DNA of 31,863 nt from a virus (taxonomy: Duplodnaviria > Caudoviricetes): positions 1 to 31,863 of IMG/VR virus record IMGVR_UViG_3300037851_000135. One strand, written 5' to 3'. This document shows, one piece after another, positions 21,859-29,346 of this stretch. Below the pieces are notes generated by a model. That model was not told the origin of the DNA. It made no database searches and worked only from the letters and a program-made list of their open reading frames with translations. Position 1 is the first letter of the stretch. The number at the start of each line of letters is the position of its first letter. A program made the translations under genes and the position numbers.

Positions 21859-23388
21859 TTAACCAATCAATTCAGGCTTAATGCCTGTTGCGTCTTGAAA
21901 GCGTTGGAGGATGACCGCGCCGTAGTTTGGACTTATCTCCATCGCGTAACAGCGGCGGGAAAGGTTCTGCGCGGCAATAAGTTCGGGGTTAGTTCCTGCA
22001 AATGGTACTAATACAATCGCATCATTTGGTGCGCTGCTTTTTATTATCCGCCTCATCATTTCGACGGGCTTTGGCGTTGCGTGTCCCATTCGCTCTTCGC
22101 CTGTCACACGTCCAAAGTCCCAAACATCTGTCATGTTGTCGTGGGTGTTATCAAAATATGCGCGGGTCGAATAAAAATCCTTCTTTAATTCGTCGTAATC
22201 CTTCCTGAAGGCGTCGTAATCCTTCTTGAAGGCGTGTTGTAGTTTTTTGTAATGCTCTTCTGGAATAAACGTCCACTGGCTCTCTGTGAACCAATGAGAA
22301 TACATACCAACACCACAAATTTCCTTGACCATGATTGGAGTTAAGCCAACTTTATCCGCCTCGCATTTGAGGTAATTTTTTACGCCGTCCCAGCCATGCC
22401 AGTAATTATCAGAATTATTATTGAAACCCTGCTCACCAAGCATAAAAAAAATGCTTTTTTCCGTTTCATTTGGATATTGACGCATACCAGCCGCCCCGAC
22501 CTGCGATATGCCACCTGCACCCGCCGAACCCTTCGCCCACACAATCTCGTTGCGGTAGGTAAGTCTTTCACTGTCCCTTAACACGCGATACCACAGTCGC
22601 CATAAGTCCTCTGCTTGTCCCCAAATATACGCGCTTCCATTATCAGCCAAAAAAGGGCGACACGCTTGCCACCATTGCATCTGAAATCCATCTAATTTTT
22701 CGCCATATAAATTGTCGTTTGCTATACCTTCATTTTCTTTACCCATACCATAAGGCGGATCGGCATGAAGGAGTGCTGCCCTCTCCCCGCCCATCAGCCT
22801 TTCGACATTCTCGCGCACAGTACAATCACCGATTAACAGCCGATGGTCGCCAAGTTTCCACAACTGCCCCGATTCAGTCTGCCAAACTTTCTGCAATTCG
22901 GCTGCTCGGTCAATTTGCGGCTCGGCATCCACAGGATCGGTATTCTCGGAATTCAATAGTTCTTTTAGATTGTTCGCATCATTATTCCACCCTTTCAGCG
23001 CGTCCACGTCCATTCCCCACGCTTGCAACTCGGCAGGCTGCCACGATGAAAGCGCGTCCCAATTCCACGAACCCGTCGCGCCTGTGTGCAACGTGATCAC
23101 CATCTCTCGCCGTTCCTCGTCGGTCAGGGCGCGGTCGGAGACCATCGCATCCATTTCATGATCCGCGCCGTAGACTGTAAACCACGCCGCGAGACGTTGG
23201 TGTCCGTCAAGTAACGGATAAAAGCCGTCAACGGCTGGCATAACGAGAAACGGCACAGGCTGTCCGAATTTTCGCTCACTAGCGATAATCCTTTGCGCCT
23301 GCGCCTTTGTACTCATGCGTGGGTTGCCTTCCCACGCCTTAATCTGTCCCAGCCTTACCTTGATCGCTCTCCAGTGTGGCTTCGTCAA
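21859..23388 (-). CDS. ParB/Srx-like domain fused to beta-class N6A/N4C DNA methyltransferase
   Basis: NPR and DGHQRL N-terminal; DPPY, HATPKPV, variant motif I VPFAGTN, AMEISPNY. Confidence 0.88.
   Translation of the reverse strand: MTKPHWRAIKVRLGQIKAWEGNPRMSTKAQAQRIIASERKFGQPVPFLVMPAVDGFYPLLDGHQRLAAWFTVYGADHEMDAMVSDRALTDEERREMVITLHTGATGSWNWDALSSWQPAELQAWGMDVDALKGWNNDANNLKELLNSENTDPVDAEPQIDRAAELQKVWQTESGQLWKLGDHRLLIGDCTVRENVERLMGGERAALLHADPPYGMGKENEGIANDNLYGEKLDGFQMQWWQACRPFLADNGSAYIWGQAEDLWRLWYRVLRDSERLTYRNEIVWAKGSAGAGGISQVGAAGMRQYPNETEKSIFFMLGEQGFNNNSDNYWHGWDGVKNYLKCEADKVGLTPIMVKEICGVGMYSHWFTESQWTFIPEEHYKKLQHAFKKDYDAFRKDYDELKKDFYSTRAYFDNTHDNMTDVWDFGRVTGEERMGHATPKPVEMMRRIIKSSAPNDAIVLVPFAGTNPELIAAQNLSRRCYAMEISPNYGAVILQRFQDATGIKPELIG
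22191..22235. repeat. 21-bp tandem repeat inside the methylase
   Basis: CGTCGTAATCCTTC(C/T)TGAAGG twice; encodes FKKDYDA/FRKDYDE. Confidence 0.85.
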
Positions 23389-25528: not shown

Positions 25529-26257
25529 TTAATTCTTTTTTGGTGGCAGGGCTTTCCCCTGCTGGGTAGGGTTTCCATCGCCGTCAACTTCCAGCGCATA
25601 GGACTTTTGGAAACTCTGCGCGGCTTGGTCTCTGCCGAGGTTGTCTTTATTTGCAGCGATCATCCGCTCGTAATGCTCGATCTTCTTGTTGGCAATTTCG
25701 CTTCGCCCCAGCAACTCGGCGCGGCGTTCACGCGCCTTTGTCGCCGCCTCGCGTTGGCGAAACTCGCGCTCAACAATCACCTCCGGATCGGAACTTCGGT
25801 ACTGCCAGTCGGCTACAATGTGAGCAGCCAACAAAACGAACACGAATCCAACAGAGATCAACGCCGCCCAGTTTGACAGCGTTTCGTCTGCCACAATCGC
25901 TAACACGTCCGCGCTCGCGATCTCGGCGAACAACCCGCCGAACATCGTGACGATCGACGTGCCGACTGTAGCCCAGACCATCGCGTTGGCAATGGTCTCT
26001 TGCGCGTTCTTTGACGTATCGCCGATCGAACCGTCCGCCGCGTCCGCCTCGTACTCGCGCCATTGCCAGTACTTAACCCCGCCCTCGATCAACGCAATAG
26101 CCGCAAAGGGCAGCCAAAAAAAACGGGGGGCAATGTGCGCAAACAGGGCGTAGGTCTGCGTTGCGGACAACACCAGCGAGCCGTTCACGATCCAGTTCTC
26201 GCGGACGTTAAACGAGAGCCAGCACCAAAAACGCTTCAAAAGGTCTTTTTCATTCAT
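25529..26257 (-). CDS. Multi-pass membrane protein with C-terminal coiled coil
   Basis: About four hydrophobic segments then a charged helix. Confidence 0.7.
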   Translation of the reverse strand: MNEKDLLKRFWCWLSFNVRENWIVNGSLVLSATQTYALFAHIAPRFFWLPFAAIALIEGGVKYWQWREYEADAADGSIGDTSKNAQETIANAMVWATVGTSIVTMFGGLFAEIASADVLAIVADETLSNWAALISVGFVFVLLAAHIVADWQYRSSDPEVIVEREFRQREAATKARERRAELLGRSEIANKKIEHYERMIAANKDNLGRDQAAQSFQKSYALEVDGDGNPTQQGKALPPKKN

Positions 26258-27209: not shown

Positions 27210-27754
27210 TACTCCCCGATGACCTAAAAGACAGTATAGCGGTTATCGCCGATGAGGGCGTTGCCGCGCAGATAAAAATCGGGCGGATAATCGGCGCATG
27301 GATGACGATTGCCCGTGTACCGCATGGGCGCAAGATGGAGACCTATCAGGCGTGCGCGGATTGGTATTATCAATGCACGGGAAACGAAGTATCGGCGCGG
27401 ACTATTCGGGCTTGGAAGTACGCCGCCGATCTGGTTGACGAGTTGGGCGATCGGTATTCACAGTTGCCGTATTCGGTTTTTATCGCATCGGTCAATTTGG
27501 CTTCGACGTGCCAAAATGACTTGACGATAATTTTAGATTGGGCAGTTGCCAACCTGCCGATTACAGTACCGCAACTCATGGCGCATTTTTCAGGAACGAC
27601 AAGCGCAAGTCTCTACGCCCCGCCCGATCATCCCGCTGTATCAAGCGTTATCCGCGCTCTGCGCCGCGTTCTACCAGAAGGCGATCCGCGCTGGAAAATC
27701 GCTCTGCCGCTTGTCGAGCAGTTGCGAAAATTGTTATCAGAGGAAGTGTCCTAG
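27206..27754 (+). CDS. Hypothetical protein (helical)
   Basis: 182 aa, ATGA overlap, SD GGAG. Confidence 0.7.
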   Translation: MILPDDLKDSIAVIADEGVAAQIKIGRIIGAWMTIARVPHGRKMETYQACADWYYQCTGNEVSARTIRAWKYAADLVDELGDRYSQLPYSVFIASVNLASTCQNDLTIILDWAVANLPITVPQLMAHFSGTTSASLYAPPDHPAVSSVIRALRRVLPEGDPRWKIALPLVEQLRKLLSEEVS

Positions 27755-27825
27755 TTTTGCAAAGAGGTGTAGTAAAAACCCGTCACGTTTTACCCACAGG
27801 CAAACATCAATTCAAATGGCATAAT

Positions 27826-27860
27826 AAAAGCAGACGATAGATAAATCTGCTTTTTATTTT
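27826..27860 (+). terminator. Possible intrinsic terminator
   Basis: AAAAGCAGA...TCTGCTTTT followed by TATTTT. Confidence 0.5.
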
Positions 27861-27873
27861 CTATGGAGTAACC

Positions 27874-28077
27874 ATGCAAAGAATTACACAATTTTCCTTC
27901 AAGGTAAACAGAGACGAACGGCAGGCGATTGCCGACCTTGCGGCGCGTTTGCGGCGTTCCCAAAGTGATGCGGTTAGGTTTGTTGTAACCGAAGCGGCGC
28001 GGCAGTTATCGCAAGCCCAAGAGACACCCGCTATGTCCGATTTGCCAAAAAGTGAGTTTGCAAAAAATCCCTCTTGA
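27874..28077 (+). CDS. Ribbon-helix-helix (CopG/Arc-like) regulator
   Basis: QFSFKV strand, ERQAIADLAARL, SQSDAVRFVV; SD GGAG. Confidence 0.75.
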   Translation: MQRITQFSFKVNRDERQAIADLAARLRRSQSDAVRFVVTEAARQLSQAQETPAMSDLPKSEFAKNPS

Positions 28078-28101
28078 CTTTTTTGCCAAGTCGTATATAA
28101 T
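28074..28101 (+). promoter_or_regulatory. Sigma70-type promoter overlapped by an inverted repeat
   Basis: TTGACT-N16-TATAAT; GACTT-N7-AAGTC at 28076-28092. Confidence 0.75.
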
Positions 28102-28107
28102 AAATAA

Positions 28108-28235
28108 GAATATGCGCGGTGTGGTAGCCGCAAATATCACGAGATCAAACCCCTCATTGGGTGCTTTTGTGCAAAGGCGCGATCTCCGCCGACTACCACA
28201 ACAGCACAGAGCATCCAATGAGGGGCTTTTGTTTT
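28108..28235 (+). ncRNA. Structured leader/attenuator RNA of the replication initiator
   Basis: Small hairpin, 22-bp terminator stem with G.U pairs, two loop-target complementarities (see findings). Confidence 0.7.
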
Positions 28236-28250
28236 GAAAGGAACTCCGCC

Positions 28251-28985
28251 GTGCGTAAAAATCTACTCATCAGCGAACCGCCGCTACAAGTATTGCCGTC
28301 TCTCGCGGTTGCGATTGGACTTGATGAAGCGATCGTACTCCAGCAAGTCCATTATTGGGTGACAAATCCCAAAAACGAGGGATACATTGACGAAAACGGG
28401 GATGCGTGGGTGTATGCCAGTTATAAAGAATGGCAATCCGATAATTTCCCGTTTTGGAAAATTCGCCACATTCAAGATGTATTTTTGAATCTTGAAAACA
28501 AGGGCGCGATGAGGTCATGTCAGCCCTTCAAAAAGGGGCATGACCAGCGAAAAGCGTACCGTCCAGCATACGATTTTCTGATGATCGATAGTACGAAAAA
28601 CGGATACTCGATAATGCAAAAAACGGATGATCTTAATATAGAATCAGAGACTACTACAAAGGCTACACAGAAAAAAGATATATCGGCAGTCGCAAAAAAA
28701 CTTTCAGAGTGTGGAATTTTCATAAATTCAGCATCGGCACAAACGGTTGACCTTTGGCTTGAAAAGCATCAGGTGGAATGGATCGGAAGGGCGATTGACA
28801 TTTCCGCGCAGAGGGGAGCAAAAAACATTAATTACATTGACAAAATTTTAATTGGGTGGGAAGCAAACGGATACCCCAAAAGCAGGGGGGCGTTAGTTGA
28901 AGAAGCAAGAGCGGATCGATCATCCGCTAAAGGTTCGGTTTCAGAATATAACGAAAGAATCATAAAGGAATTGTCGAATGAATAA
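28251..28985 (+). CDS. Replication initiator (replisome organiser) with C-terminal DnaD-like domain
   Basis: LQVLPSLAVAIGLDEAIVLQQVHYW N-terminus; AI...NINYIDKILIGW DnaD motif; SD AAAGGA, GTG start. Confidence 0.85.
   Translation: MRKNLLISEPPLQVLPSLAVAIGLDEAIVLQQVHYWVTNPKNEGYIDENGDAWVYASYKEWQSDNFPFWKIRHIQDVFLNLENKGAMRSCQPFKKGHDQRKAYRPAYDFLMIDSTKNGYSIMQKTDDLNIESETTTKATQKKDISAVAKKLSECGIFINSASAQTVDLWLEKHQVEWIGRAIDISAQRGAKNINYIDKILIGWEANGYPKSRGALVEEARADRSSAKGSVSEYNERIIKELSNE
28585..28628. repeat. Two iteron-like direct repeats inside rep (candidate origin)
   Basis: TCGATAGTACGAAAAACGGAT / TCGATAATGCAAAAAACGGAT, 23-bp period, followed by AT-rich sequence. Confidence 0.55.
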
Positions 28986-29346
28986 CTTTGCGATCGAAAT
29001 CGATCAAGGGAAAGTTGAGGCGGCAGAGGAAGGTTATAGGCTCGCCATGATTGATCTTAAAGACAGCGACGCATACAAGAAAGAAGTCGAGGAGTGGACG
29101 AGTGTTTTGGCGCGGCTCTGGGCGGCAGTAGATAAACCCATTGACAAGAGCCGCATTAAAGAATACAAGCGCGAGTTATCAAGTGTCCCGTTCGGACTGC
29201 TGGAGATCGCGGTAGGGCGTTGTATCCGTGAAAATGAATATAACAACGTCCCAACAATCGGCAAGATATGGTCGGCTGTCCGGCGCGAACTGGGCAATCC
29301 TCACGACATCGATCTCGCGCTTGAGCAGTGGGTATATTCGAGGTAG
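28978..29346 (+). CDS. Helicase loader/inhibitor-like protein (G39P-like)
   Basis: Follows rep; Y...L..VPF..LEIAV...I......PTIGKI pattern. Confidence 0.55.
   Translation: MNNFAIEIDQGKVEAAEEGYRLAMIDLKDSDAYKKEVEEWTSVLARLWAAVDKPIDKSRIKEYKRELSSVPFGLLEIAVGRCIRENEYNNVPTIGKIWSAVRRELGNPHDIDLALEQWVYSR

Follow-up and report, generated by a model that had tools for sequence, protein, structure and literature searches.

The window, by which we mean the whole 31,863-nt stretch of DNA that was analyzed, is an IMG/VR tailed-phage record that is about 60% complete and encodes terminase, portal, capsid, and tape-measure genes. Between an RHH gene and the gene for a DnaD-like replication initiator lies an RNA element, whose parts are listed in Table 1. 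The promoter, hairpins, boxes, stem, SD-like sequence, and GUG start described in an earlier sequence-only reading of this DNA were all confirmed base by base. The promoter is the best of nine promoter-like sites between positions 26000 and 31863. Relatives of the initiator start at the position of GUG 28251, and a longer initiator open reading frame, which begins at GUG 28161 and runs through the RNA, was rejected on these grounds. The closer relatives of the initiator include proteins from Chloroflexota bins, a sequence relationship that merely hints at the host; among 401 genomes of the phylum of a Chloroflexi bin, the initiator was found in the seed genome only. In one public DNA run, which may be that of the source sample, contigs carry the element free of differences.

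Table 1. Features of the initiator leader and its flanks, in positions of the window.
Feature	Position	Strand	Description
RHH (Arc/CopG-like) gene	27874-28077	+	67 aa; phrog_3431 Arc-like repressor, E 6e-4; RHH_1, E 0.024, below cut-off
TTGC(C/A)AA repeat cluster	28042-28089	unassigned	Copies at 28042, 28057/28058, and 28083; flank and enter the promoter
Sigma-70-like promoter	28074-28101	+	TTGACT (28074-28079), N16, TATAAT (28096-28101); 11/12 consensus match
Hairpin 1	28116-28131	+	GCGG (28116-28119)/CCGC (28128-28131); loop is box a
Box a	28120-28127	+	UGUGGUAG
Box b	28141-28146	+	GAGAUC; single-stranded, 3 nt before the terminator stem
Predicted terminator/antisense domain	28150-28225	+	Stem 28150-28172/28204-28225 enclosing hairpin 2 and bulged a'
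Hairpin 2	28176-28190	+	GGCG (28176-28179)/CGCC (28187-28190); loop is box b', GAUCUC (28181-28186)
Box a'	28193-28200	+	CUACCACA; bulged (unpaired) inside the long stem
U tract of predicted intrinsic terminator	28227-28235	+	
SD-like sequence	28236-28242	+	GAAAGGA
Replication initiator	28251-28985	+	DnaD-like, 244 aa, GUG start; first gene of the putatively gated operon; phrog_6493, E 1e-31; PF07261

The stop codon of the RHH gene overlaps the -35 box of the initiator promoter. The TTGC(C/A)AA motif occurs 21 times in the window against 12.9 expected, and four of the matches fall inside the 48 nt of the cluster at the promoter. It is possible that the 67-aa RHH protein is a regulator at the protein level and that the repeat cluster is its operator, which would place a second, protein-level control on the initiator promoter. 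Control of the initiator had been proposed to be repressor-free; for the window phage this is doubtful, given an RHH/Arc-like gene that ends on the -35 box beside operator-like repeats. The repeat is found again at 27756-27763, about 110 nt upstream of the RHH gene, and just upstream of the same gene lies a hairpin with A-rich and T-rich flanks (27826-27854) that resembles a bidirectional terminator. Next to the terminase and HNH genes, positions 21859-23388 (- strand) encode a protein of 509 aa, a DNA methyltransferase with a ParB-like part fused at its N terminus.

The long stem is composed of 22 pairs, two of them G.U (28161:28214 and 28166:28209), with one bulged U (28168). As had been claimed, boxes a and a' (8 nt) and boxes b and b' (6 nt) are both perfect complements, and the 8-mer of box a has no occurrences in the 31.9-kb window other than a and a'. 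The folding z-score of the element was -5.4 to -6.1. The G.U pairs had been said to favor the + strand; the direction is right, but the preference is slight (-54.1 versus -51.5 kcal/mol). When the terminator part was held fixed and the 5' 42 nt were shuffled 20,000 times, 13 shuffles matched a' at 8 nt or more, 572 matched b' at 6 nt or more, and none did both. The joint complementarity of a/a' and b/b' is not due to chance. Within the leader, positions 28111-28121 can also form an 11-bp helix (three G.U pairs) with 28247-28257 over the GUG start, in both predicted folds, and 28181-28191 is nearly repeated at 28241-28251.

An alignment of 49 initiators was used to fetch 240 loci, and a layout detector was run on 228 leaders of the initiator family, the window included. 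The detector passed 13 of the 228 leaders; among the controls it passed none of 240 rep coding sequences, none of 228 shuffles, and four of 228 reverse strands, one of these four being the mirror image of a true element. Two duplicates were removed from the 13, as were three leaders that had passed the strict filter with weak, irregular stems (L206 to L208), and three found by a looser scan or by eye (L126, L233, and L236) were added. The unit of promoter, hairpin, and giant terminator was thus recognized in 10 distinct relatives (L124, L126, L129, L183, L193, L233, L236, L250, L281, and L282), and in this initiator family the element is limited to 10 of about 205 non-redundant leaders. Among 80 genome-collection loci, it was present in one only, L287. 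The latter is a contig in a Bathyarchaeia-labelled bin that carries a leader identical to that of L250, a bacterial-type promoter, and a phage initiator, and it is probably a mis-binned phage contig.

A larger subfamily was obtained from IMG/VR with a pattern that fixed only a, a', and the T run. The pattern gave 120 matches from 5 of 64 parts, and 34 of these passed the full layout test, in which the hairpin stems, the terminator stem, and b/b' lay outside the pattern. By extrapolation (34 of 120, applied to about 1,600), this one subfamily may number approximately 450 IMG/VR records. Its 40-sequence alignment combines the 34 filter passes with three sequences from the protein set and three that were picked by eye. 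Elements in L364, L542, L559/576/583, and L587 came from further patterns; three other pattern scans gave the unit at 0 of 3, 1 of 5, and 6 of 76 loci. A model built from the 40 subfamily sequences, with the window excluded, gave the window element the best score of all its matches in the window (25.9 bits; rough E 0.0013) and put other window-type elements at the top, with generic terminator features adding to these scores. A promoter-like site (score of at least 9) whose -10 box lies 10 to 13 nt before a was present in 15 of 33 relatives versus 0 of 33 coding controls, and the U tract after the stem is also found in relatives. In 17 records scanned on both strands (710 kb), the detector missed three elements that had been picked by eye or pattern and made three false matches; 14 true elements were found, never two per record. 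Searches by primary sequence recovered little. With the window leader, nhmmer found no sequence-level relative among the loci fetched up to L202, and an exact 15-mer scan with the inner hairpin returned chance matches only. BLAST against 50,697 phage records gave no real match to the window; of the subfamily queries, one matched only two uncultured spring-water phages and a second matched none. Single-protein searches for close relatives yielded L002 (C-terminal match only, leader without the unit) and L533 (contig stopping before the leader).

Co-variation of a/a' and b/b' among relatives, the check that the sequence-only reading had proposed, was found both in the subfamily alignment and in a comparison of own with cross pairing. 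The boxes of the relatives differ, yet in a 9-by-9 matrix each element's b pairs best with its own b', while a' matches are in common only where a is in common. The own b:b' match averaged 6.1 nt, a value inflated by the selection filter, versus 3.6 nt for cross pairs. Compensatory b/b' changes were seen on near-identical scaffolds in L233 versus L236, in L481 versus L489, and in L124 versus L542; L124 and L542 have nearly the whole scaffold in common. In the 40-sequence alignment, 96.6% of cells pair (slid controls, 37 to 48%), where 34 of the 40 sequences were chosen by a filter demanding a b:b' match of at least 5 nt, a/a' was fixed by the search pattern, and the sequences are related, so that the shuffle control is not a probability. 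In this subfamily 32 of 39 pairs change on both sides, three of the four scored b:b' columns are compensatory, and there are 31 distinct b boxes; the hairpin 1 stem also co-varies in relatives. Over 17 non-independent pairs, the differences per site came to 0.18 for b, 0.09 for the stem, and 0.54 for synonymous positions. Box b is thus constrained, changing about twice as fast as the terminator stem and well below synonymous sites, and this rate test did not demonstrate diversifying selection on b for new specificities. Judged from these alignments, the promoter, the a hairpin, b, the long stem with b' and a', the U tract, and the initiator form a conserved unit with co-varying pairings.

Folding of the window RNA and its relatives supported the cis antiterminator fold that had been predicted. 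For window transcripts ending at 28200 to 28215, the minimum free energy fold pairs a with a' and b with b' and lacks the terminator; from 28216 onward the terminator wins, and at full length its advantage over the cis fold is 16 to 20 kcal/mol. The cis fold dominates the nascent prefixes of 9 of 9 window-type and 21 to 25 of 40 subfamily RNAs, and it is lost at full length in 8 of 9 and 40 of 40, respectively. These models make a kinetic switch likely, in which a nascent cis fold is followed by the terminator. Because the terminator wins at equilibrium by so much, read-through needs a kinetic trap, which lies beyond proof by nearest-neighbor folding. In 47 of 49 elements, b ends 0 to 5 nt from the base of a 16- to 34-bp stem; on this geometry, b:b' and the terminator could not coexist in cis. 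Since b would be out of reach of the apical loop once the stem has formed, b:b' should either be part of an alternative fold or involve a second molecule. Trans co-folding of the two halves was uninformative, since loop-loop pairs are beyond nested models.

Our preferred reading, to which we give a somewhat better than even chance, is that a C4/CI-type antisense leader has been fused to a predicted intrinsic terminator, yielding a self-limiting attenuator of the phage replication operon. As predicted by folding, a:a' and b:b' would form in the growing transcript before the 3' arm of the terminator exists, leaving the 5' arm trapped in the b:b' loop, and the polymerase would read through into the initiator. 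Some transcripts would nonetheless terminate, and the stable product, about 125 nt long (about 85 nt if trimmed), would display b' and a'. As this RNA builds up it would, in analogy to P4 CI, bind boxes a and b of newly made leaders, so that the cis fold is prevented and termination enforced; either half of the old RNA would have an effect in the same direction. Expression of the replication genes would thereby come under negative feedback as the number of genome copies grows, and incoming phages carrying the same boxes would be excluded. On this analogy, and because b' and a' are displayed on the finished terminator, it is likely that the leader is a switch of the P1 C4/P4 CI kind and that accumulated leader RNA feeds back in trans to shut off the replication genes. 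No second a+b target beyond chance was found elsewhere in 14 genomes, and the DNA therefore does not force the trans reading.

Control of the C4/CI type is known from a few coliphages and proteobacterial prophages. The proposed likeness to the antisense RNAs of P1 and P4 was borne out by the P1 annotation, in which a1 lies in a hairpin loop, b1 follows 3' of a1, and b' and a' come after. Like C4 of P1 and P7 (RF01695; c4-a1b1, RF03163; clan CL00128), the window element has the order a1,b1...b',a' on one transcript. In both, the first box occupies the loop of a 4-bp hairpin with a single-stranded second box 3' of it, and b' in a hairpin loop is followed by an unpaired a', both within a long closing stem. 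The larger subfamily and P1 have a GCUGG/CCAGU b' hairpin in common, and the window loop UGUGGUAG is identical in the row NC_009439.1/3776440-3776492 of the alignment file c4-a1b1.sto (PMC2864571). For C4, the cited sources describe RNase P processing and a three-stem fold (PMC5320573), a role in heteroimmunity (PMC12197685), and a named c4-2 motif (PMC5737381). The window element differs in lacking the tetraloop arm 5' of the b' hairpin that is part of the C4 three-stem junction (in its place, members of the larger subfamily have an additional hairpin 3' of a'), the first c4-a1b1 hairpin, and a downstream a2/b2 over a ribosome-binding site, which in P1 stands before icd. Moreover, its closing stem ends 3' in a U tract rather than the CCACC of P1 C4, it would gate an initiator rather than icd/ant (antirepressor), and it has its own promoter about 10 to 18 nt before a. 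A scan against the Rfam C4 families, also suggested by the sequence-only reading, gave no C4 or c4-a1b1 match at the gathering threshold in the window or 16 loci. In nine element loci, neither RF01695 nor RF03163 was matched at E up to 5, compared with 68.8 and 74.9 bits for the P1 and P4 controls. Collectively, these sequence comparisons indicate a real, conserved, co-varying RNA element of the C4/CI kind, which is C4/CI-like by layout and, by Rfam score, tetraloop arm, a2/b2, and target gene, not a member of C4.

The nearest functional parallel is the P4 CI RNA (seqA/seqC), filed by Rfam under C4, which is described as arising from the leader under its control and as terminating transcription prematurely ahead of the replication genes (PMC4825925). 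The description of the window element as a new system was therefore overstated, while its layout and predicted folding fit P4 CI-like premature termination of a replication operon. Unlike P4, the window has no downstream seqC-like target, its antisense domain is itself the predicted terminator with the initiator start within about 15 to 25 nt, and the carriers are autonomous tailed phages without integrase, whereas P4 is a satellite phage. Among published motifs, DNAVirus_4653 (also _187 and _230) is 124 nt long, with 43 sequences, mostly from freshwater, at most 25 bp upstream of YdaU/DUF1376 genes (PMC10690425). Its length and context, as listed, match those of the larger subfamily, and the two probably overlap; the motif is listed as not a terminator, and the main-text passages of that article contain no link to C4. 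No description of a terminator-fused C4/CI form was found in the literature searched, which omits most subscription papers. In the plasmids pT181 and pIP501, an antisense RNA induces intrinsic termination ahead of the replication initiator; this RNA is transcribed from a promoter on the opposite strand and has full complementarity to its target. The window likewise has a predicted terminator and antisense boxes ahead of an initiator, but its partner boxes are 6 to 8 nt long and on the same strand. No - strand promoter-like site was found at the leader (27552-29237) by consensus scans, which do miss promoters.

The first downstream open reading frame encodes an initiator or primosomal protein in 21 of the 36 elements scanned. 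Four further carriers have such a gene, three as the second gene and one (L436) with a first open reading frame outside the earlier scan. The remaining first frames encode HNH or other endonucleases, ParB-like proteins, or small unknown proteins. The 40-sequence subfamily mostly precedes other initiators than those of the window's family, and the elements of L559 and L587 precede a primase and a helicase, respectively. In contrast, the element of L364 (- strand, 1175-1281), with the window's own box a and a different b, precedes a small secreted-looking protein and a terminase-portal (packaging) operon rather than replication genes, and this counts against the replication-gating proposal. Endonuclease genes (HNH or other) stand directly behind the element in L411, L418, L463, L481, and L487, with the initiator coming after the nuclease in L487; this arrangement suggests homing at this site.

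The lifestyle of the carriers was assessed in 14 records with a completeness of at least 90%, of which 13 belong to the larger subfamily and one is window-type; these carriers are in part interrelated. No tyrosine integrase, large serine recombinase, resolvase, rve (DDE) integrase, S24 repressor, or ParA was found in any of the 14. Among 11 metagenomic non-provirus controls, four had an integrase, three an S24 domain, and six either one; a tyrosine recombinase was present in 16 of 30 near-complete element-less controls, a set rich in isolate proviruses. HTH_3 exceeded the cut-off in 3 of 17 carriers versus 41 of 47 controls, and one carrier (G021) was classed as a provirus. Gene order is lambdoid, and the divergence in G011 and G015 has a Cro-sized gene without a CI-sized gene. 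Carrier phages may be either lytic or persist unintegrated. A classical role in prophage immunity is doubtful because the 14 near-complete carriers lack integrase, S24 repressor, and ParA, and control of the timing or dosage of replication and kin exclusion are more likely because the carriers lack integrase and a CI-type repressor.

Several other explanations of the element were weighed against trans feedback. The long hairpin and the U tract alone account for the folding z-score, as they would in an ordinary terminator with coincidental complementarity. This explanation hardly deserves credence, since no shuffle of the 5' leader reproduced both matches and compensatory changes occur in dozens of relatives; chance complementarity is refuted by the co-variation. 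A cis-only attenuator, in which the a:a'/b:b' fold sets a fixed or condition-dependent read-through (through elongation speed, pausing, temperature, or a phage or host protein) and accumulated RNA plays no part, is a possible competitor, though we would not expect it to be right. It explains all of the co-variation equally well, and it is consistent with the lack of a second target, of a downstream a2/b2, and of above-neutral change in b. However, the finished terminator presents both partners as a loop and a bulge, just as trans-acting C4 does, a simple antiterminator would pair more economically with a terminator arm, and 31 distinct b boxes occur in 40 sequences.

Plasmid copy control works by feedback on an initiator. 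The RNA could accordingly be imagined to provide immunity and copy-number control in a non-integrated, plasmid-like state, replacing CI and integrase much as in the multicopy-plasmid state of P4. The contrast between integrase, recombinase, or S24 in 0 of 14 carriers and integrase or S24 in 6 of 11 metagenomic non-provirus controls favors this idea, as does the lambdoid gene order with a Cro-sized but no CI-sized gene in G011 and G015. Nevertheless, we judge it unlikely: ParA is equally absent from the 14, only one of the 80 genome-collection loci (L287) has the element, the missing genes fit plain lytic phages equally, and the carriers are partly interrelated, with the window record itself incomplete. 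An effect of opposite sign, with read-through or translation switched on by pairing in trans or by a processed fragment, would have a precedent in IsrK, a c4-a1b1-related RNA described as opening the ribosome-binding site of a downstream open reading frame in trans (PMC4825925). In both P1 and P4, Rfam isrK and the a1b1 region overlap, and the window 5' leader is predicted to pair over the GUG start. Such activation is nonetheless improbable, as the sole terminator-excluding fold is the cis a:a'+b:b' structure, which trans binding of either half would block.

Compared with the known systems, the attenuator that we favor would be pared down, with antisense RNA, target, and terminator all united in one 125-nt leader of uncultured phages. 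It is found repeatedly ahead of replication genes of several unrelated kinds (DnaD-like, YdaU-type primosomal, O-like, primase, and helicase). If its trans action is true, it would explain how replication is limited or kin are excluded in integrase- and CI-less lambdoid phages, and it would constitute a natural library of short, box-specific RNA attenuators. A bolder and quite tentative proposal is that these are uncatalogued, widespread phages of lambda-like gene order that exist as non-integrated replicons, in which CI and integrase have been replaced by a self-pairing terminator RNA that throttles the initiator and immunity groups are set by a 6- to 7-nt box.

Leaders with other arrangements were also observed before initiators. 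L214 (178-378) has the same giant terminator with another box order, the loop of hairpin 1 matching the apical loop, and about 17 nt around the U tract and SD are in common with the window. The same giant terminator is present in L259 (517-643), where a 9-nt box matches the bulge. Terminator leaders also precede members of this initiator family in L217 (1877-1989), with two 7-nt matches arranged as a,b,a',b', and in L219 (1237-1510), with 12-nt and 7-nt matches to the apical part.
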